From a candidate division FCPU426 bacterium (lineage in GTDB: Bacteria; Oederibacteriota; Muellerivitia; Muellerivitales; Muellerivitaceae), in contig CAVYSE010000006.1 of the NCBI GenBank assembly GCA_963771075.1, positions 102,930 through 166,929 of the forward strand: a stretch of DNA of 64,000 nucleotides. The letters run 5' to 3'. The notes under the pieces are model-generated. The model was not told the origin of the DNA. It did no database searches and was given only the letters and a program-made list of their open reading frames with translations. Both the position numbers and the translations under genes were made by a program. Of this stretch, positions 32,967-51,591 are shown piece after piece (the stretch's first letter is position 1; every line of letters starts with the position of its first letter).

Positions 32967-33146
32967 CTATTTCGCGACAGGTGTGGTGCTGGGCTTGGTT
33001 TTTTTGCCCCCTTTTTTATGGACCTTCTTGTGCTTCATGGTTTTGCTAACCGGCGTGGCCGAGGGCGTGGCAGGGGCGGCAAAAACCGTCCCCGATGTCG
33101 CGGCCAGGAAAAGCGCCACCATCAATGAAACCATCATCTTTTTCAT
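32967..33146 (-). CDS. 59-aa secreted Lys/His-rich peptide (not in ORF track)
   Basis: AAGGAG RBS; MKKMMVSLMVALFLAATSGTVFA-APATPSATPVSKTMKHKKVHKKRGKKTKPSTTPVAK. Confidence 0.75.
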   Translation of the reverse strand: MKKMMVSLMVALFLAATSGTVFAAPATPSATPVSKTMKHKKVHKKGGKKTKPSTTPVAK

Positions 33147-37762: not shown

Positions 37763-38179
37763 TTAAAATGGATTTTTAACCGTAAGTTCACCGAACTTCC
37801 TTCCGGCTTGAAAGTCCTCGGTCAACAGCAGCCGGGCACCACTCCTTTGGGCCGAAACGACGATCAGGGCATCCCAAAAGGAAATCTTGGCCCTTTCCTC
37901 TAGTTGTGCCGCCTCAGCCACCATACTCCCGTGTAGGCTCACCGTTTCCCAGGAGAGATAATGGGAAATCAATTCCAACCCCTGCTTTTTGGTCAGGGGT
38001 TTCGGGATTTTGCGGGTCACATTGACGTAAAACTCCTCCAACACCTGGGCGCTCAAGACCCCGTTATTGTTCTCCCATAGCTCACCCACCGCTTTCCGGG
38101 CCTTTTGGTGCTTCTCCCCCGCTTCCCGGTCATAAGCGTAAAGCAGGATGTCCGTGTCCACAAATGTCTTAACGATCAT
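37763..38179 (-). CDS. PIN-domain (VapC-like) toxin
   Basis: FVDTDILLYAYD, QVLEEFY, SFWDALI, LLTED. Confidence 0.92.
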   Translation of the reverse strand: MIVKTFVDTDILLYAYDREAGEKHQKARKAVGELWENNNGVLSAQVLEEFYVNVTRKIPKPLTKKQGLELISHYLSWETVSLHGSMVAEAAQLEERAKISFWDALIVVSAQRSGARLLLTEDFQAGRKFGELTVKNPF

Positions 38180-38399
38180 GAAGGCTTTCCCGAGAACCCC
38201 GCTTGCCGCCGAAAGACAAACCTTTTTCCATCACCTCAAAAGCCTTCACCTTGGATTTCTGGTAAACCTGGTCCTCCTCGGCCATCTTTTGGATATAGGC
38301 CGCCAATAAACCCGTAATGGAAGTTTCGTGATGGGCGGCGAGTATCTTTGCCTTCTTGATGAGGTCTTTGTCCAGGCTCAAGGTTAAGTTTTGTTTCAC
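38169..38399 (-). CDS. Antitoxin (DUF6364 / RHH-like)
   Basis: KQNLTLSLDKDLIKKAK; overlaps the toxin start. Confidence 0.85.
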   Translation of the reverse strand: MKQNLTLSLDKDLIKKAKILAAHHETSITGLLAAYIQKMAEEDQVYQKSKVKAFEVMEKGLSFGGKRGSRESLHDR

Positions 38400-38410
38400 G
38401 GAAGCCTCCT

Positions 38411-38430
38411 TTACACGTAATTATGTGTAA
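38411..38430. promoter_or_regulatory. Putative TA operator palindrome
   Basis: TTACAC-GTAATTAT-GTGTAA just upstream of the antitoxin RBS. Confidence 0.55.
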
Positions 38431-38583
38431 CACGTGATAAGACTTTTTTCAAGTTCCAAACAAATGGTTAATGGATAGCATTCCATAATCCATTTGTTGT
38501 GACGGACGAATTATCCGTCCAATAGACAGGTGGGATAAGCTTTTGACAGGACGCGGGAGGAAAAATAAGTATTACTGCCTGTT

Positions 38584-38603
38584 CACGATGGGTCCCCGGC
38601 GTG
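38584..38603. repeat. att-like site, copy 3
   Basis: CACGATGGG-TC-CCCGGCGTG. Confidence 0.5.
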
Positions 38604-38698
38604 TCAAAAATAATAATGGACCGAGAAGTTCAGGATCACTGAATTACTGATCAGGGCTAAAGGGGCTCAAAACTTTAAGGAAGATCATCCGGAAAGCC

Positions 38699-38857
38699 AT
38701 GGAACAAGCCCGGGGTAACCAGACCCGGACAGCGGCAATCCTGGGCCTACACCGCAATACCTTGCTCTGGAAATTGAAGGATTTGAACCTCCAGGATGAT
38801 TACAGGAAGCTTGTGAAGGTCAGGCGGGAAAAGGGGATTGGGTTCCAGGGGCTTTGA
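38699..38857 (+). CDS. Minimal Fis-type HTH protein or remnant (52 aa, not in ORF track)
   Basis: (IIRKA)MEQARGNQTRTAAILGLHRNTLLWKLK fits the Fis/HTH_8 pattern. Confidence 0.65.
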   Translation: MEQARGNQTRTAAILGLHRNTLLWKLKDLNLQDDYRKLVKVRREKGIGFQGL

Positions 38858-39715
38858 TTATTTAGACTTTTGATCCCATAATAATTTCCATTCAGTATAG
38901 TTAAATTCATAAAGATCTTGAGATAAGCTCCAAACCATATCCAATAACATCCTTTCAACGTCATTAATAACGGACCCGCTCAAAATAACATTGGCAATAG
39001 TTCCCCGACCCTTATTACCCGTTGTTGATTCACACGCTCTCCGCCATTCGTACATGCTCTTTATACGTTCATTTAAATAGTCTTTTCCTCTAGGATCGCT
39101 CAATGTGGTTGACATGAAATGGGGTTGTTTAAAATATTTTGTTAATTCAGTCATGACATTCTTCAAACCTTCGATAAGAGTTCCATTAGCACCAAGAGTA
39201 TCAGCGGTACAACCCCTATCCCAAATAGGTTGGGCTATCGCGTAGAGTTTTCTTCGGCGAATTGGGATGTCCATTAATAATCTGGCGAGTTTGCCATCTT
39301 CAGTTTCCGCTAAAAGAAGCTTTTTGTGGCGTTCTCGTTCACTTTCGGCTACCCGTTCAATGAAGACTTTTGCTTCTTCGTAACTATCACCGAGTTTCAT
39401 GAATGCGTTGATTAAAAAATTGTCTTTTTGATCAGCGGTCATTGAAGAATGTTTTTTAGCAACCAAAAGAACCCAATCATTTCGATATAACCTAATTTGG
39501 GCGGCATTAAGATGGCGACCAAATAATTTTGTTTTGTTGTGACACTCCAAACAAAGGACAGCCAAATTATCATCATCGTTATTACCAGGGTCGTCATCAA
39601 TATGATGAATCTGTATGGTTTTATTTGGGGCTCTACAAAAACAACAAGTTCTATCTGAGTCAAATTGAACTTTTGCAGAAATGTGATTAGGTATCGGGAT
39701 TCTTTCTTTTTTCAT
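38858..39715 (-). CDS. HNH endonuclease-domain protein
   Basis: CCFC...IHHID...N...NLAVLCLECHN followed by a helical domain. Confidence 0.85.
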   Translation of the reverse strand: MKKERIPIPNHISAKVQFDSDRTCCFCRAPNKTIQIHHIDDDPGNNDDDNLAVLCLECHNKTKLFGRHLNAAQIRLYRNDWVLLVAKKHSSMTADQKDNFLINAFMKLGDSYEEAKVFIERVAESERERHKKLLLAETEDGKLARLLMDIPIRRRKLYAIAQPIWDRGCTADTLGANGTLIEGLKNVMTELTKYFKQPHFMSTTLSDPRGKDYLNERIKSMYEWRRACESTTGNKGRGTIANVILSGSVINDVERMLLDMVWSLSQDLYEFNYTEWKLLWDQKSK

Positions 39716-39728
39716 CTCAAAAACCTCG

Positions 39729-40010
39729 TTATTTCTTTTGCTTCATTTGGAGTTCAACAAATGCTTTTCTAATTTGTTCCAAAAAACCCGTTTCCTCAAA
39801 CGGTCCACAAAATATGTTCATGCCTCCTGGATATTTAATCCTAAAGCTTTCCAGCAAATTACGATTATAAATTTCACCCGGGTAAGTAATAAAAAACCAT
39901 CCAGCTCCCGCGAACAAACAAGAGCTTTTTTCTTCTGATGAACCTATATATGGTAAAGATAAGGGCCATAAAGGCGTATTCGTAGAGATTCTTTGAGGGT
40001 TTTCCGACAC
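39729..40010 (-). CDS. Hypothetical protein
   Basis: 93-aa ORF co-oriented between neighbours. Confidence 0.4.
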   Translation of the reverse strand: MSENPQRISTNTPLWPLSLPYIGSSEEKSSCLFAGAGWFFITYPGEIYNRNLLESFRIKYPGGMNIFCGPFEETGFLEQIRKAFVELQMKQKK

Positions 40011-40071
40011 TCTCTAGGTATTGGAATGCAAACCGGGGGCTAAATTCTCGGAACAATCAACTTATTCATTT

Positions 40072-40314
40072 TCAAGCTGGAACAGACCGCAATTTTTCAT
40101 AAACAGCATCAGGGGCTAAATCAGCTCCGTTGGGCCAGCAAATCGCGCCAAACTCATCGACGCTTACTTGGGCAAACAACTTTGTGTCTTTTAGCGGTTC
40201 AAAAACAGATCCGAATAATCGATCCTTCAACGAAATAACTCCTTTACTTCCATCGGCAAAAACCACTTCCAACCGATACTCGGCTAAGGGTTTAACGGAT
40301 TTAATTTTTTCCAT
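40072..40314 (-). CDS. DUF2442 family protein
   Basis: YRLEVVFADG...FEPLKD...F...V...I.WPNGADLAPD. Confidence 0.88.
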   Translation of the reverse strand: MEKIKSVKPLAEYRLEVVFADGSKGVISLKDRLFGSVFEPLKDTKLFAQVSVDEFGAICWPNGADLAPDAVYEKLRSVPA

Positions 40315-40318
40315 CTTC

Positions 40319-40579
40319 CTACTCCAACGGTGAAATTTTATTTAACGGTTCATGAGCCGATGCTAACTTCCAATCATCCATCAATTCTTCACGGTGCTCT
40401 GATGCCCATTCCAAAACCATCGCCTGGGCTCTTTGGGGTAGATGCCCAACAATAATTTTCAAGGTTTCTATTTCCACAACAATCATATCATCACCGTAAT
40501 AGGCATGGAAATGCGGCGGTCCATGATCATCGAAGTACATTCGAACAAATATCCCGAAAAACATGCTTATTGTTGGCAA
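40319..40579 (-). CDS. DUF4160 family protein (putative TA partner of DUF2442)
   Basis: PTISMFFGI...DHGPPHFHAYY...EWA; TTG start at 40579. Confidence 0.88.
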   Translation of the reverse strand: MPTISMFFGIFVRMYFDDHGPPHFHAYYGDDMIVVEIETLKIIVGHLPQRAQAMVLEWASEHREELMDDWKLASAHEPLNKISPLE

Positions 40580-40824
40580 TCTTGCTTCCCGATTCAAATC
40601 TTAAGATTATTAACTTTCATGACATCCCATCAAGAAAGGGATTATAGCTTCTTTCACTATTGTAAGAACCTTCAAAAAGACACGGCCCTCCACGCTTCCG
40701 CCTCGCGCGGGTGGAATTTGCGGTTATTTCCAAAAAATCTTAGATTTCCAAAACGAAATTTGTGATGTGCCGACCTTCCGTGAAGCATTAGGGCGAGGGG
40801 TTTTAGTCTTCCTTCGTGTTTTCT

Positions 40825-43095
40825 TTACGGAGTGGGTGCGATTAAAACAGTCATCATTCTCGATGGGCTTATGGGCCCGCTTTCGGGATCGGACTGGTTC
40901 TGCTCCGCCTTTTGCCAATCCGCTTGCCGGACGTAATACAGTGGATGCTTCCCCGGGGTAAGGCCTTGAAAGGCCTCCTGCAATTTTTTCCAATCCTGCG
41001 GATCACCCTTGTTTTCCCCAATTCCCCAAATCCGGTCGCCCAGGTTCACCTTGGTTTGGGAAGCCGGGCTGTTTTCCCAGAGGCCGTCCACCTGGTTTCC
41101 CCGGTCCAGCCAAAAGCCCAGGAATAAGTAGGGGATGCCGGCGATGGGCGCGTTCTTCCCGCCGGTGGTTGATCGAATCTTGAATTCCACCGCGCTCACG
41201 AGGTGCCGGATGCCGTCGGCACTGCTTTGGAAGGTCAGGGGCCGCTTGAGGCCTGAAACCAAGAGAGTGCATTGGTAGAAGCCCTTGGGCGCGTTGGATG
41301 CGACATCAATTTGGGAGCAATGGATCGCTTTAACGTCCTCCCAATAAAACTCGCATTTCGAGTTGTCCCCCAGCAGGTTGCCAAAGGTACCCGCAAAGCC
41401 CAGGCTTAAGCCGGATGGGTTCGGCGATGCCGACTGCAGTCTTTGCCGGTCATGCCCCCAAAAGACGGTGTACTTTTCCGAGTCTTGCATATCCGCCAAA
41501 CGACGGTCGGCCATATCCAAGGTGATGGCAGGGTCAGGCTGGATGTCGCAGTTTTTGATGTGGAAGGGCTGGGGCAAACAGGCGATTTCGTCTTCTAAAT
41601 TGGTCCGGTCTTCTAGCGAAGAATCCCAAGGCATCGGCCCGGATGGGACGGGATTGGATTCGAGGTTCGCTTTCGGGGATTCGGGAACGGTGGCAGCCGA
41701 TGGGGCGACTGAATACGAGGATCGGGGCAGGGATTTCGAGGTTAATTTCTTTTTGTTGCCTCTCGAAACAGGTTTAACAGGGGTTGGGTTAGTGATTGGT
41801 ATAGAGATAACGGGTGTCGGCGAAGAGGCTTCGGTTACCTTAGGTTGTTCACTCTTCCCCAGGGCCAACCTGGTCGGAAAGTATCCAATCCAGAGGCTTT
41901 TAAACCACCAGACTGCCACTAAAAGAGCGCCAATGATGATGATTTGAAAGATACCAGGCCTGAAAACTTTATAGATAAGCCTCAAGAGTAAAAGCCCCAG
42001 GACCACTGCCGCCCAGGTGTTCCGAAGGGTATAACCTAAGGCCAATAAAAATAACCGGCCCAGAAGGTTGAAGCCGGACCCGATCAGTCCATCCAACAAG
42101 GGTCCAATGATAGGGATGAAGTGGGTGATAAAGCCAAGCAAGGTTGAATAGACGGCGAATATTGTAAACCCGTAAATAAACCAATAGGCCAAGGACTTAA
42201 GGGGGTTGGCCCCTCGACGTTTCTTCGATTTACCAACCAGCCTATGCGCTACGCTCTTCCCGACCTCTTTTATATAACGATGTAAATATTGAAATCCTTC
42301 TCTAAATCCTGTAATTAGCACACGGTTTAAATTCTTAGACTTAACTTTAGACTTCTTACTTGTTTGTTTTACGGTCTTTTTACGCTTGCTAGGTATGGAT
42401 TTAAACTGATTAAGAAAGGCATCTAATTTTTGCCCCAGGGTGGTTCCTTTCCCCTGAGGCAGCTTATGTGTGCGATTAACTTCTTGTTCTTCAGCTATAT
42501 TTTCTTCTGGCAGGTCATTGGAATCCTTGATTTCAGGTTCATTTACGCCGGGCGAGGTCAAATTTGGGGTTTCTGAACCCGGGTTGGGATGATCCCCTGC
42601 CTTGGTTATGGATTGGGTGTGAGATGGGTCAAAATCCTTAGCAGATTTGCCTGAAATGACCCAAGCCACTAGGTTTGATATTTGTTTAGTGCGAAAGCGG
42701 TGGCTGATGACTTCATCCAGAACCTCATGGACCGCCTTGGGAAGATCCGGGACATTTCCCTTTAGCTTGGTTAAGGCAAGGGCACAATTTAGGGAGAGGA
42801 TATAACCTGGATGGGCTTCGACTTCTTGGGTGACAGCCACGGGCTGTGAAGCACTTTCTGGCAATGCCTGTTGTTTGTGGGATAGGGCCGCCCGACGGAT
42901 CTTGTCGATGGCTTCGGGGTCTAAAATGGCCCTAATGAGCATTAAATTGCCAAGATTACCCTTACTAATGCCAAGGGTTTTAGCAAGAACGGCGTAATTG
43001 GCATTGGGTGCCTTGATAACTTCAATTTCTAATTGGGCCAGGCGGTCCAGCCAACCCAAGGATTCCTTCTTAAATTCACCCATGGATACCCCCAT
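40825..43095 (-). CDS. Membrane protein: ParB/Spo0J-like HTH, ~4 TMs, Pro/Ser/Thr linker, C-terminal PDZ-like domain
   Basis: YAVLAKTLGISKGNLGNL, LSLNCALAL, RTKQISNLV; hydrophobic block ~aa 300-405; FLGF...NSPASQTKVNLGDRIWGI. Confidence 0.6.
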   Translation of the reverse strand: MGVSMGEFKKESLGWLDRLAQLEIEVIKAPNANYAVLAKTLGISKGNLGNLMLIRAILDPEAIDKIRRAALSHKQQALPESASQPVAVTQEVEAHPGYILSLNCALALTKLKGNVPDLPKAVHEVLDEVISHRFRTKQISNLVAWVISGKSAKDFDPSHTQSITKAGDHPNPGSETPNLTSPGVNEPEIKDSNDLPEENIAEEQEVNRTHKLPQGKGTTLGQKLDAFLNQFKSIPSKRKKTVKQTSKKSKVKSKNLNRVLITGFREGFQYLHRYIKEVGKSVAHRLVGKSKKRRGANPLKSLAYWFIYGFTIFAVYSTLLGFITHFIPIIGPLLDGLIGSGFNLLGRLFLLALGYTLRNTWAAVVLGLLLLRLIYKVFRPGIFQIIIIGALLVAVWWFKSLWIGYFPTRLALGKSEQPKVTEASSPTPVISIPITNPTPVKPVSRGNKKKLTSKSLPRSSYSVAPSAATVPESPKANLESNPVPSGPMPWDSSLEDRTNLEDEIACLPQPFHIKNCDIQPDPAITLDMADRRLADMQDSEKYTVFWGHDRQRLQSASPNPSGLSLGFAGTFGNLLGDNSKCEFYWEDVKAIHCSQIDVASNAPKGFYQCTLLVSGLKRPLTFQSSADGIRHLVSAVEFKIRSTTGGKNAPIAGIPYLFLGFWLDRGNQVDGLWENSPASQTKVNLGDRIWGIGENKGDPQDWKKLQEAFQGLTPGKHPLYYVRQADWQKAEQNQSDPESGPISPSRMMTVLIAPTP

Positions 43096-43133
43096 GGTTC
43101 AAAGTTAAATAGACGGTATTTTCTAACCCAACT

Positions 43134-43399
43134 CTTCAAACAAAAATATGATTTAAATCAATAAACGGATACCTATGTCCAATAGTCTTGCGGTTCCGTC
43201 CAATAGAGTATTACCGCCCATCCAATAGATAAGTTTAATTGTCCAATAGATAATAGGATTCTGTTCAATAGGCCTGTCACGCTATCCAATAAAATATTGC
43301 CATATGTCCAATAGTTAGATGGAGTTGTCCAATAAGTAATGAATGCCCGTCCAATAAGCGGAGCCTGCGTGCAAAAACAAATAGCTCTCAGTTCAATAG
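43134..43399. repeat. Phased array of 9-bp motif RTYCAATAR with alternating 12/13-nt variable spacers
   Basis: TYCAATA cores at 43178, 43199, 43221, 43242, 43264, 43285, 43307, 43328, 43350, 43392; degenerate in-phase copies at 43135, 43157, ~43370. Confidence 0.9.
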
Positions 43400-43574
43400 G
43401 CGATAACCAAGGCTTCATATTCCAACGAAAGCGTCCATCCAATCCAATTGAATTCGCCCACTAAATCCAATCCAAAGCGCCCACCCTGTGTTACCGGACC
43501 AATTTTGGCATGCTTATCCGAACAGCGCCCGTTGGTTCATGGACTTTTGTATTCATCCGCAGGCCATACACTGT

Positions 43575-43760
43575 TCTCCCCTTCTGAAAGAGGGGGAAAA
43601 AGGGGGAGTTAGCTTCTCCGCCAATTCAACCGTAACGGCTAATACCCCCCTTCCCCCCTTTTTCACCCCCATTTCACCATTAAGTATTAAAAAATGTAAA
43701 TGGGGACGTCCCCATGCCCCATGTCATTCTTTCAAATGGGGCATGGGGGAAGGGGGGGAA
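43575..43760. repeat. G/C-tract-rich nested inverted repeats
   Basis: CCCCATGCCCCAT (43710) / ATGGGGCATGGGG (43736); G-tracts at 43592-43606 and 43745-43758 complementary to C-tracts at 43645-43658. Confidence 0.7.
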
Positions 43761-43841
43761 ATTAAAAAAGCCGTTATCGCACAACTAGCGGGCGCTCTTC
43801 GGATAAGCATGAAAAAGGACTCTTGCCAAGGGGCCAGGCCC

Positions 43842-45068
43842 TTATCTCACGAGCAAAACCTTCCGCCAGTTCGTTTTTTGGGGGGTCTGCAGGTAGATCA
43901 GGTAGACCCCGCTGGCACAAAGATCGCCACTAAAGTTGGTGCCGTCCCAAGTAAAGCCCTGGTGGACAGGCGCTGTCAGGTTGCCATCCTGTAGGGTCTT
44001 TATCGATTCCCCAGCGCTGTTGTAGACCTTCAGAATGTATTTGCCTGAACCCTGGCAAGAGTCCACAAGTAAAGAGACCGGACCCTGAGATGGAATGAAA
44101 AGGTTCTTGGAAACGGTGAAACCGTCGCAGGGTTGGGGGGTGGCATTAGGGGTTGGACTGGCTGTGGGGGTCAGGGTGGCGATGGGAGTCGGGCTGGCGG
44201 TGGGTGTGGGGGTAAAGGTGGCGCAGGTGTTGTAGGCCCCGTTCCCGCCCGGGTTGCCGCCGGAAACTCCGGCCCCGCCCGCGACTGAATAGGTGCCGGT
44301 TCCCGTCATGGGTAATAGGGTTGAACAGAGCAAGATTAAGCCACCGCCGCCACCGCCGTCACCGCCACCATCATTGCCATTATGATTCCCGGCAGCCCCG
44401 GCGGCGTTCAAGAAACCGTTGAAGGTGATGGATTGGGCGCTAATGGATATCGTACCGCCAGCCCCGCCCCCCCCGCCGTCGTCAAAAGAAATGTCTCCCC
44501 AGTTGCCCCAGGAGCCCGCGCCCATGTCGATCATTCCATTGATCAGGACTGAACCGGAGGGGGCGGTCAAGATAAAAGCTCCACCACCTGGGTAGGGGGT
44601 GGAACAATATGGGAGTGATGTAGAGAGAGTGCAATAACGGCCTCCTGGACTCCCTGGAAGAACCGGGGCCAGCGGGTTGTCGTAGGCTGAGCCACCGCTA
44701 TAGAATCCACAACTTCCACCCGCCCCGCCGTGGCCGCCGCCACTGGACCCACTCCCACCCAACCCAGCCCCTGGGGCTGTCCACAAGTTCAAACCTTCAG
44801 CCCCATAACCATTACTGTTGCCTTCCACCATGCCCTCAATGTCCGTGTTGCCGGTCACGGTCAAGGTCACGGCGCCACCGATGAAGAGCGTGGCCCCGGC
44901 CGAGACCGTGATGGAACAATAGGTGACGGCGGTACTGACCAAGGTCGCCGGTGCGCTGGGAGAAACATTCAGGGCGCAGGCCTGGGAATGAAGGTCAAGG
45001 GGGCAGAAAGAGAACAAGACACCGAAGAGTAAAAGCCGGGTAAAGCCTGAAAAATAGTGAAATCTCAT
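43842..45068 (-). CDS. Secreted Gly-rich protein with TP linker and C-terminal FlgD-Ig-like domain
   Basis: Signal peptide, GGGHGGAGG / GGGAGGTI repeats, TPTPT, LKVYNSAGE..K...WDGTN...ASGVY. Confidence 0.8.
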   Translation of the reverse strand: MRFHYFSGFTRLLLFGVLFSFCPLDLHSQACALNVSPSAPATLVSTAVTYCSITVSAGATLFIGGAVTLTVTGNTDIEGMVEGNSNGYGAEGLNLWTAPGAGLGGSGSSGGGHGGAGGSCGFYSGGSAYDNPLAPVLPGSPGGRYCTLSTSLPYCSTPYPGGGAFILTAPSGSVLINGMIDMGAGSWGNWGDISFDDGGGGGAGGTISISAQSITFNGFLNAAGAAGNHNGNDGGGDGGGGGGLILLCSTLLPMTGTGTYSVAGGAGVSGGNPGGNGAYNTCATFTPTPTASPTPIATLTPTASPTPNATPQPCDGFTVSKNLFIPSQGPVSLLVDSCQGSGKYILKVYNSAGESIKTLQDGNLTAPVHQGFTWDGTNFSGDLCASGVYLIYLQTPQKTNWRKVLLVR

Positions 45069-48872: not shown

Positions 48873-49565
48873 ATGTGCGGACGATTCGCCCAAAAAACCG
48901 AACCGAAGAAGCTGGCGAAGAAATTCGCGGTGGTTGTTCCCGCCGCCCTCCTGGAACACGAGCCCCGTTACAACATCGCCCCCTCCAGCCTCGTTCCCGT
49001 TTTGAGGATTCCCGCTTCCGGTAGCCCGGCCGTCCTGGAAACCCTCCAGTGGGGCCTGGTGCCTTCCTGGGCCAAGGATCCTTCCATCGGCTTCAAGCTC
49101 TCCAACGCCCGGGCCGAGACGGCGGCCGTGAAACCTTCCTTCCGGTCGGCCTTCAAAAGCCGCCGCTGCCTGGTGCCGGTGGACGGTTATTACGAATGGA
49201 ACCAGGAAACCAAACCCAAACAGCCCCATTATTACTTCATGAAAGACGGCGAACCCTTCTGCCTGGCCGGGCTTTGGGAAACCTGGGCGCCCCGCGACCC
49301 CCAGGCCCCGCCCCTCCAGACCTTTACCCTGCTCACCACCGGGCCTAACGCCCTGGCGGCGAAGGTGCACGACCGCATGCCGGTGATCCTGGAGGAAAAA
49401 GATTTCGCCTTCTGGCTCGACCCGGATAACCACGACGTGGAGGGGCTGGTGAAATTACTGGTCCCCTTCGACCCCGGGCGGATGGACAGCTACCCCGTTT
49501 CCACCTTCGTCAGCAACGCCCGCCACGAGGGCCCGCAGTGCATCCAGGAAATTAAACTTCCTTAA
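48873..49565 (+). CDS. SOS response-associated peptidase (SRAP; YedK/HMCES family)
   Basis: MCGRF N-terminus, RYNIAP, WGLVP, NARAE, YYEW, HDRMPVIL. Confidence 0.95.
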   Translation: MCGRFAQKTEPKKLAKKFAVVVPAALLEHEPRYNIAPSSLVPVLRIPASGSPAVLETLQWGLVPSWAKDPSIGFKLSNARAETAAVKPSFRSAFKSRRCLVPVDGYYEWNQETKPKQPHYYFMKDGEPFCLAGLWETWAPRDPQAPPLQTFTLLTTGPNALAAKVHDRMPVILEEKDFAFWLDPDNHDVEGLVKLLVPFDPGRMDSYPVSTFVSNARHEGPQCIQEIKLP

Positions 49566-49578
49566 TTCTTGACCTCCC

Positions 49579-49620
49579 CGGGTGAAAGGTGTAAGTATAC
49601 GCATGTATACCTATCACCCG
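49579..49620. promoter_or_regulatory. Palindrome upstream of umuD (candidate SOS operator)
   Basis: CGGGTGA...GTATAC-GCAT-GTATAC...TCACCCG, downstream of TTGACC at 49569. Confidence 0.45.
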
Positions 49621-49628
49621 AGGCGACC

Positions 49629-50081
49629 ATGTCCGAAACCCAGCCGCTCACCGGCCCCTTCCGGTTCCAGCTCACCGTCCACTCCCTGCTGAAAACCTAC
49701 CTGGCCCCCATCCCGGCGGGCTTCCCCAGCCCCGCCGAGGATTACCTGATGCGCGAACTCGACTTCAACGAGCTTTTATTGAACCCCCCCGAGTCCACCT
49801 TCGGCTTTTTCGTGCGGGGCGAGAGCATGGCGGAGGCGGGCATCCATACCAACGACATCCTGGTGGTCAACACCGAGGCCGAGCGCCAGTTGGGCCAGAT
49901 CGTCGTGGCCGGGGTGAACGGCGACTGGGCCGTGAAGACCCTGGGGGCCGTGGGCGGCAGTCCCGCCCTGATTTCCCACAACCCGGATTACGCCCCCATC
50001 CTCCTCAAGGAATTCGACGAACTGGTGATCTTCGGCGTCGTGCGGGGCTTTGTCCGCCTGTTCCAGCGGGGGAAACCGTGA
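49629..50081 (+). CDS. umuD: UmuD-like S24 peptidase
   Basis: AGFPSPAEDY cleavage motif, VRGESM (Ser), VKTL (Lys). Confidence 0.92.
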   Translation: MSETQPLTGPFRFQLTVHSLLKTYLAPIPAGFPSPAEDYLMRELDFNELLLNPPESTFGFFVRGESMAEAGIHTNDILVVNTEAERQLGQIVVAGVNGDWAVKTLGAVGGSPALISHNPDYAPILLKEFDELVIFGVVRGFVRLFQRGKP

Positions 50082-50286
50082 GCGACACGGCGCTGGTCCG
50101 AAGTGGGCCACTAAGCCAAACCCTTTTATCAGGGGGTTTGGCACATTCAAACCCTATGCCTCGGCTGGAGGCCTCGGCACAGAAGCCCGAAGCCGTGGCG
50201 CTGGGCGCCGATTCCCCTTTGGAATCGGCATTACCAAGACGTGCGCCACGACCTGAAGTCGTGGCGCTGGTCCACCGGTTATAATT

Positions 50287-51591
50287 ATGGAACCGGTGCA
50301 ACAAAACCCTGGGCCACGGCGTGAGGCCGTGGCCCTTGTGGATTGCAACTCCTTCTACGCCAGTTGCGAGCAGGCATTCGACCCCCGGCTTTGGAACAAG
50401 CCGGTGGTGGTGCTTTCCAACAACGACGGCAACATCGTGGCCCGGTCCAAGGAGGCCAAGGCCCTGGGCATCGGCATGGGCGGGCCCTTTTTCATGGAAA
50501 AACAAAAGATACGCGAATACGGCATCCACGTCTTTTCCAGCAACTACGCCCTTTACGGCGACATGTCCAACCGGGTGCGCCGGGTCCTCCAGCGTTTCTC
50601 GCCCCGCATCGAGTTTTACAGCATCGACGAATGCTTCATGGACCTGTCGGGCCTCGACCCCCAGGGACTGACCGCCGCCTGCCGCCGCCTCAAGACCACG
50701 GTGGAAAGGGCCACCCGCATCCCGGTTTCCGTCGGCGTGGCCGAAACCAAAAGCCTGGCCAAGATCGCCAACAAGGTGGCCAAGAAGTCGCGCAAAGCCC
50801 AGGGGGTGGTGAACCTCCTGGCGTCGCCCTTCACCGACCGGGCCCTTCAAAGCGTGCCGGTGGGCGACATTTGGGGCGTGGGAAGCCGGTACGAGGAATT
50901 TTTCCTGGGGATCGGCGTCAAGACGGCCCTGGATTTCAAGAACTGCCCCCCGCCCGTCATCCGGGGGCGCATGGGCGTGGTGGGCGCGCGCATCCAAATG
51001 GAATTCAACCGGGTTCCCTGCCTGCCCCTGGAGGACGTGCCGCCGCCCAAGAAGATGATCGGGTCCAGCAAGGGCTTCGGGGTGCCCGTAACCGGCAAGG
51101 ACGAATTGAAGGAAGCCCTGACCTGCTATGTCACCCGCACCGCCGAGAAGGTGAGGCAACAGAACCAGGCCGTGGCCGCCATGCTGGTCTGGGTGGCCAC
51201 CGATCCCTTCCGCGAGGGGGAACCCCAATACGAGAACTCCGCCACCTATACCCTTCCCGAGCCCACCCGCTATACGCCCCACCTGGTCGCGGTGGGCAAC
51301 CGGGCCCTCGACCTGCTTTACCGCCCCGGGTTCAATTACAAACGCGTGGGGATTTTATACACGGAACTGGCCGATGCCGACGCCATCCAGCAGAACCTGT
51401 TCGGAAGGGTGAACGCGCCCAAGCAACGGGCCTTGATGGAAGCCTTGGACCGGGTGAACGGAAGAATGGGCCGGGGAAAGGTGCGAATGGCCGCGGAAGG
51501 GTTCGCGCACCGCTGGCAGACGAAGTTCGAGTTCAAATCCAGGCGCTACACGACTTCCTGGGATGAACTTCCGATCGCCAAATGCGGTTAG
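50287..51591 (+). CDS. umuC: Y-family DNA polymerase UmuC (Pol V)
   Basis: [33 protein letters not shown]-terminal [12 protein letters not shown]. Confidence 0.95.

Follow-up and report, generated by a model that had tools for sequence, protein, structure and literature searches.

A phased direct-repeat array as the probable private operator of a clampless ParB-like membrane protein

ParB-family proteins are known as CTP-driven clamps that act on palindromes. Here we describe a variant of the ParB kind, in which a gene for a ParB-like membrane protein that has no clamp is paired with a private array of phased direct repeats. We infer that the protein binds this array in cis, represses its own gene, and pins the locus to the membrane, so that the array is probably the private operator of its neighbor. 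The initial annotation had proposed a binding platform for the adjacent ParB-like helix-turn-helix (HTH) protein, acting as a tether or an autoregulatory array. At the level of sequence comparison, this proposal is strongly supported by the phasing of the repeats, by their pairing with clampless genes, and by the way in which the motif tracks the HTH. In this ParB offshoot, a hard-wired row of half-sites together with an integral membrane anchor appears to stand in for clamp and palindrome.

What does the array look like? The window, by which we mean the whole stretch of 64,000 nucleotides that was analyzed, holds ten exact matches to the 9-mer RTYCAATAR (YTATTGRAY as seen on the gene's own strand). 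They start at 43177, 43198, 43220, 43241, 43263, 43284, 43306, 43327, 43349, and 43391, with successive spacings of 21, 22, 21, 22, 21, 22, 21, 22, and 42 bp. The initial annotation had found the same cores, its coordinates being the true starts plus one, and its in-phase degenerate units and its statement that all spacers differ also held up, the latter for the eight 12/13-nt spacers, which are mutually different. Odd and even cores are one motif, and the cores are nonpalindromic direct repeats. The features of the array and of the adjacent gene are as follows.

43177 to 43357, + strand: nine exact matches to RTYCAATAR, 21 or 22 bp apart, separated by eight spacers of 12 or 13 nt that are all unique (motif match)
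43391 to 43399, + strand: tenth exact RTYCAATAR core, 42 bp past the ninth (motif match)
43369 to 43377, + strand: in-phase degenerate unit with two mismatches (motif match)
43134 to 43164, + strand: two proximal in-phase degenerate units, at 43134 (three mismatches) and 43156 (one mismatch)
40825 to 43095, - strand: gene for the clampless ParB-like membrane protein, 756 aa (open reading frame)
42601 to 43080, - strand: predicted ParB/Noc-type DNA-binding domain, aa 6 to 165, with no ParB_N/CTPase domain ahead of it (AF2, Foldseek, and VIA)
42943 to 42969, - strand: turn and recognition helix, I43 to L51 (best covarying window in the family)
41881 to 42180, - strand: hydrophobic region with about three predicted membrane helices, aa ~306 to 405 (by hydropathy only)
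40828 to 41628, - strand: predicted PH-like and PDZ-like C-terminal module, aa 490 to 756 (AF2 and Foldseek)

On both strands of the genome that carries the window (G000, 4.39 Mb), RTYCAATAR has 301 matches, and the window array is the sole spot with at least two of them within 66 nt. The 9-mers are not enriched, and no second phased cluster of the window core was found in this genome. Contigs that run across the whole array come from public DNA runs X1 and X2, which belong to two studies, and partial coverage comes from runs X3 and X5; all show 0 differences. One of these matched runs may be the window's source. Just past the array and out of phase with it, positions 43441 to 43484 hold 1.9 copies of a 23-bp unit with TCCAAT core fragments. 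Beside the array, at 43504 to 43820, is a dispersed hairpin repeat with nested hairpins and 34-nt terminal arms that are 85% complementary. This repeat has 37 matches in G000 at E<1e-10, 16 of them covering at least 140 nt, and is an element separate from the array. An Rfam search of 42900 to 44100 gave only sub-threshold miRNA-like matches, which fell on the hairpin repeat.

Judging from the N termini of homologues and from protein P0001, the gene probably starts at its second ATG (43083), which follows a GGGGG run. Word-indexed protein searches with the single 756-aa protein found P0001 alone, and single-protein and pattern scans of a genome-contig collection that may omit close records gave 0 matches. 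A PDB sequence search with the head alignment returned nothing meaningful, and Pfam gave no match on the whole protein, including none to ParB_N. The head (aa 6 to 165) was modeled with AF2 from 38 homologues at a pLDDT of 85. In Foldseek, ranks 1 to 11 for this model were Noc, ParB, and Spo0J, with probabilities of ~1.0 but E values of just 0.02 to 0.08, and its VIA structure matches were ParB, Spo0J, and KorB (Z of 6.8 to 7.3 across 94 to 102 residues). On these models, the head qualifies as a predicted DNA-binding domain of the ParB/Noc superfamily. The "ParB-HTH" label given in the initial annotation, for which Pfam offered no match, is yet backed by structure and by paralogues that keep ParB_N and link the head to it. 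The HTH begins at about residue 6, with no ParB-CTPase fold at the N terminus. Next comes a basic stretch, then the hydrophobic region, and then a P/S/T-rich linker. The tail (aa 490 to 756) was modeled with AF2 at a pLDDT of 92.6 and had PH and PDZ/HtrA matches in Foldseek, with a low TM for the whole model. This PH/PDZ-like tail is likely outside the cytoplasm, with the head inside. By hydropathy and folds, the protein would therefore combine a cytoplasmic head, a membrane span, and an outer module, as in the ToxR-like class of transmembrane regulators.

In a profile search, the family separated into strong hits, in which the head is N-terminal, and weak hits, which have 100 to 150 extra residues; ParB_N was matched in 21 of the 25 long paralogues scanned. 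The family is small (95 clusters at E of 1e-10 among 1.8 billion representatives). Within family f1, 9 of 31 genomes have clampless genes, 41 in number, and the 68 other genomes of the phylum have none, a patchy distribution that argues against an essential role or an essential segregation device. A genome has up to eight paralogues, nearly each with its own motif. Domain comparison of the members revealed a common core of head and membrane segment, with a tail that is variable and in some members replaced or absent. Several members stop just past the membrane helix but still keep arrays, and some family members are broken or have no predicted membrane helix. G000 also has an ordinary ParB (C25:84079-84354), two parS-like palindromes (C27:5522 and C27:8341), and eleven ParB_N matches overall. 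Inside the ParB_N region of clamp-bearing paralogues we observed an in-frame repeat peptide in several copies (G000:C18:~237170-237400, row o_C18b).

Are the arrays tied to one form of the gene? At least five phased units were found directly upstream of 39 of the 41 clampless genes, across nine genomes, and the count rises to 40 of 41 when the array of L045, with a period of 53 bp, is included. The sole exception, L047, is bordered upstream by IS110 and downstream by another transposase gene. Metagenomes scanned with a pattern yielded 39 loci, all of them family members, and arrays were present in 35/35 of those with at least 400 nt of flank; of the four loci short of flank, L126 shows four units in 145 nt and the three others have no flank. 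By contrast with the clampless genes, arrays occurred at 0/35 ParB_N-bearing paralogues (3 of them with less than 300 nt of flank), where the chain was four units or fewer, as in 149 of 150 random windows. Autocorrelation without a preset period peaked at lags 21, 22, and 43, and the best lag was 20 to 22 in 49 of 55 arrays. Some arrays extend into the ribosome-binding region. Motif discovery upstream of homologues, suggested in the initial annotation with the expectation that both phasing and motif would be conserved, bore out the first part; the motif differs for nearly every paralogue (47 distinct cores among 51 simple arrays) and tracks the HTH instead. Variant arrays also exist: L037 has a period of 33 bp (21+12), L045 one of 53 bp (20+12+21), and L028 and L050 one of 52 bp with an 8-bp sub-period; the periods of L037 and L045 stay near whole helical turns. 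Strict orthogonality within a genome was considered and rejected, since the cores of same-genome paralogues are no more different from each other than are cores across genomes (4.36 versus 4.22 of 9).

In the clamp-bearing genes, we observed a different kind of site. An odd palindrome, differing in sequence from gene to gene, lies in the same coding window of 23/34 clamp-bearing genes, compared with 0/40 clampless genes and 114/3,000 random windows, the 1-bp palindrome center having been chosen after a first look at the data (L065, a duplicate of L006, was dropped, and the frameshifted L052 was omitted). The clampless form, with its direct-repeat cores and no intragenic palindrome, shows no palindromic 16-bp site of the parS/NBS kind. 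Clamp plus palindrome and no clamp plus array are thus in complementary distribution inside one family, which suggests that the array replaces CTP-driven spreading. Repeated palindromes were found upstream of just 2/35 clamp-bearing genes: in G018, two clamp-bearing paralogues are preceded by three to four palindromes that are long, related, and centered on TCGCAAWTTGCGA (L070:959-1160 and L069:3076-3170). In clamp-bearing paralogues with Q at the R173-equivalent position (e.g., L083, L084, L058, and L100), the intragenic palindromes start with TTTA. This association is possibly a second code, or else it reflects coding constraint and kinship.

Does the motif follow the HTH? In 37 training arrays, the recognition-helix windows topped all 9-column windows for motif similarity (partial r of 0.215, P of 2e-4, the Mantel P values here and below being too strong because kin are not independent), and the next-ranked window was the LSLNCAL helix. 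The held-out set consisted of 19 arrays, after 20 of the 39 metagenomic loci had been removed as near-training, duplicate, or flankless. In a register-free test of pairs within this set, the recognition helix gave an r of 0.28 (P of 3e-4) versus 0.33 for the rest of the domain, and the top window was the first HTH helix. Among pairs less than 50% identical outside the helix, the helix reached 0.178 versus 0.063 for the rest of the domain, with K45, A38, N50, F8, and Y34 as the top columns. By spacing, Y34, S44, K45, and N50 of the window's protein correspond to Q162, S172, R173, and N178 of Caulobacter ParB, which are named as parS contacts in the available text of PMC7383237. Judged by sequence, motif similarity tracks the HTH beyond overall kinship, and the result was replicated in held-out loci. 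The motif signal resides in the HTH, which would be expected were each protein to read its own array; the covariation bearing on the head's predicted sequence-specific binding to a cognate site is positive but incomplete.

A simple one-residue-one-base code, on the other hand, was not established. Two residue-to-base rules, derived from 32 arrays (five of ambiguous period were omitted) and fixed before the metagenome scan, did weakly on the 19 held-out arrays: rule 1 was correct in 8/12, and rule 2 in 10/13 versus a base rate of 13/19. When cores were predicted from nearest neighbors, the helix gave no advantage over the rest of the domain (4.53 versus 4.44 of 9, P = 0.39), and the test on independent pairs, with two to three usable pairs, was without power. 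A link of R to G (13/14) is post hoc and register dependent, with a P of 0.18 in the held-out arrays alone. The alignment of the cores to the parS half-site in the register used was not the best alignment and is unsupported.

We then asked whether selection acts on the repeats. Five orthologous array pairs differed at 9 of 330 core positions and at 115 of 504 spacer positions, a contrast that is overstated because cores were defined on one partner per pair, L039 occurs in two of the pairs, and the two arrays of one pair are identical. The units stay collinear; spacers drift by point change and keep their order, with no turnover. By this comparison, the cores appear to be under purifying selection. 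Could the array nevertheless be a neutral, decayed 43-bp tandem duplication, the outcome that the initial annotation had named as counting against it? In L008, L009, L018, and L034, the array is simply a 43-bp unit repeated in tandem, its spacers alternating, and such repeats in several relatives make duplication the likely origin of the arrays: a 43-bp (21+22) unit would have been duplicated, with the spacers decaying afterwards. In the window, however, the cores are intact but same-parity spacers are no more alike than shuffled ones (0.364 versus 0.347, P = 0.29). Moreover, unrelated motifs share a fixed period, and arrays accompany a single form of the gene. Both the contrast between cores and spacers and the link to the gene contradict neutral decay, to which we give almost no credence.

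A near-consensus sigma-70 promoter lies just past the array, facing the gene, at 17 of 50 loci (partly kin), compared with 3/50 on the opposite strand, 2/45 in a farther window, and a mean of 3.3 in shuffles; a second count gave 18 versus 2 of 50. With a promoter in this position, the array falls between it and the start codon. No promoter was found for the gene in the window itself, even at 7/12 matches. The hairpin repeat at 43504 to 43820 occupies the position of the relatives' promoter region and may have displaced the promoter.

Where a promoter is seen, the array is likely transcribed as a leader, which raises the question of whether it acts as RNA, either as a structured leader or as a processed guide array of short repeats and short spacers similar to TIGR arrays. 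Better folding than that of shuffles was seen in 16 of 54 arrays (z of less than -2), and the window core contains CCA; the RNA of the window array itself folds no better than shuffles (z of -0.14). Like the module described here, TIGR-Tas systems have short repeats and short variable spacers beside a gene (PMC12045711). According to the available text of that report, they combine two distinct alternating 8- to 12-nt repeats, an adjacent Nop-domain protein, and ~36-nt RNAs. Here, unlike in TIGR-Tas, odd and even cores are a single repeat, the unit is 21.5 or 43 nt instead of 36, and the adjacent gene is ParB-like, with a predicted DNA-binding fold. The Nop model PF01798 had 0 matches in G000 (96.7% complete), with positive controls in 4/14 and the qualification that the model may miss remote Tas proteins. 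The family cores vary without a kept box motif, orthologous spacers are collinear and drifting, and the window array is identical in other assemblies. The TIGR-like branch of the initial annotation thus found no support, and we consider a role as RNA highly improbable.

Could the array instead be the iteron origin or the centromere of a mobile element (plasmid, prophage, or integrative and conjugative element) that carries the gene? Iterons are spaced at two helical turns, as are the repeats of the array. Members are patchy and lie among IS elements, toxin-antitoxin genes, proteases, other variable genes, and housekeeping genes. In period, the array looks like sopC of the F plasmid, 12 direct 43-bp repeats bound by the ParB protein SopB (PMC3177203): both are tandem arrays of about a dozen units with a 43-bp period, next to a ParB-type protein. 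In the account available from the same source, each sopC unit has a 16-bp inverted repeat and the system works with SopA. The clampless arrays, unlike sopC, have two nonpalindromic half-sites per 43 bp and lie upstream of the gene, in its leader, with no recurring ParA nearby. Indeed, no recurring Rep, ParA, or integrase family was found among the neighbors of the 41 members (71 neighbors scanned by Pfam), and no ParA within positions 33000 to 54000 of the window (25 open reading frames scanned), so the linked ParA of a ParABS system is missing there. No Rep initiator family, as expected of an iteron replicon, was recognized among the scanned neighbors, although an unrecognized Rep would escape. 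The remark in the initial annotation that no Rep or Nop gene is nearby therefore stands. Members are on contigs of up to 1.6 Mb, and their neighbors include housekeeping genes, among them argS and a secY-like gene. A pattern scan of viral contigs, with a pattern that catches 23/38 known members, gave 0 matches, and one query of plasmid and phage collections gave no match. Together, these data make a mobile-element origin or centromere very unlikely. Divergent SecY-like genes directly adjoin two members, away from an evident ribosomal operon (L148:5482-6900 and L161:6231-7856).

No recurring partner gene was found beside the 41 members, and the orientation of the upstream gene varies; the module is the gene plus the array and nothing else. 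This bears on another possibility, that the protein is a one-component sensor of the ToxR/CadC kind, whose PH/PDZ tail senses an envelope cue and whose head regulates other genes through the array, tethering being incidental. Like ToxR-type regulators, the protein has an N-terminal DNA-binding head, a membrane span, and a predicted outer module. ToxR, while in the membrane, binds multiple tandem sites near promoters, and this multiple binding ties DNA to the membrane, as far as described in the available text (PMC10629549). Unlike ToxR, the protein has a ParB-type rather than a winged-helix head, its array is long and strictly phased, and the only evident target is its own gene, toward which the promoter faces where one is seen. 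As for targets beyond it, G000 has no second phased cluster and no enrichment of the 9-mers, although single sites cannot be judged. The members that end just past the membrane helix yet keep their arrays also argue against a sensing tail, and we regard such a sensor as unlikely.

We therefore favor a private operator that serves self-repression and membrane pinning. Each 9-bp core would be a half-site bound by the ParB-type head. The protein would be made and inserted into the membrane near its own gene, and about ten copies would align on one face of the DNA in the leader. Once the array is full, the loaded leader would block RNA polymerase by roadblock or occlusion, so that output would stop, and about ten anchors would keep the locus at the membrane. 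Clamp-bearing paralogues would gather many copies through loading at one private palindrome; the clampless paralogues, unable to spread, would use the row of direct repeats in place of spreading. The tether may itself be what was selected for, or it may come as a by-product of a membrane protein that limits itself.

How does this module compare with known systems? On the features tested, it belongs to none of ParABS, Noc, TIGR-Tas, and iteron replicons. It is like Noc-NBS, the nucleoid occlusion system of Bacillus, and chromosomal ParB/Spo0J-parS in that the predicted DNA-binding fold is the same and the covarying residues map onto the parS contacts of ParB. Noc recruits DNA to the membrane with CTP-driven spreading (PMC8429893), and CTP-driven spreading is likewise described for ParB (PMC12704722), each as given in the portions available. 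By analogy with Noc or ToxR, the clampless protein may hold DNA at the membrane by means of many copies. Unlike ParB and Noc, it has no CTPase clamp, has predicted integral membrane helices and a PH/PDZ-like tail where those proteins have an amphipathic helix and a dimerization domain, and is paired with nonpalindromic direct repeats in cis instead of 16-bp palindromes, with up to eight paralogues per genome and nearly each with its own motif. KorB of RK2 and VirB, both among the structure matches, are also ParB-family heads that serve transcriptional control (PMC12704722), but they are soluble and keep the CTPase clamp. RocS of Streptococcus pneumoniae similarly binds DNA, connects the chromosome to the membrane, and depends on multivalency; unlike the clampless protein, it has an amphipathic helix and a coiled coil, and the available text mentions no cognate cis array (PMC11500499).

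A broader reading is tentative, and we offer it as a possibility with the odds against it: the lineage may run a multipoint chromosome-to-envelope anchoring system built from ParB offshoots, in which the private address of each paralogue (palindrome or half-site array) pins its locus, the PH/PDZ tail docks on an envelope structure, and array saturation limits copy number. If this anchoring proposal is true, the more than 50 natural head/site pairs would amount to a ready-made recognition code of the ParB fold and supply a tool set of small tethers between DNA and membrane. To our knowledge, the dissection of ParB specificity covers essentially two sites, parS and NBS. With the site written beside the gene in ~50 natural head/site pairs, the code of the ParB fold is directly testable, and a short array plus one gene would be a defined tool for the effects of membrane pinning on transcription and segregation. 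We found no description of the clampless gene and array module in the literature searched, which was mainly open-access texts. In the available main text of the ParB-fold survey PMC12704722, "PDZ" does not appear and five of the six mentions of "membrane" concern Noc or methods; clamp-bearing paralogues could be listed in its supplements.

Two other gene blocks were observed in the window. Downstream of the gene, at 37763 to 40597, is a low-GC block with a DUF4160/DUF2442 pair, an HNH-like protein, and a DUF6364/PIN pair. At 48873 to 51591 is a mutagenesis cassette consisting of SRAP, an S24 peptidase (UmuD-like), and a Y-family polymerase (UmuC-like).
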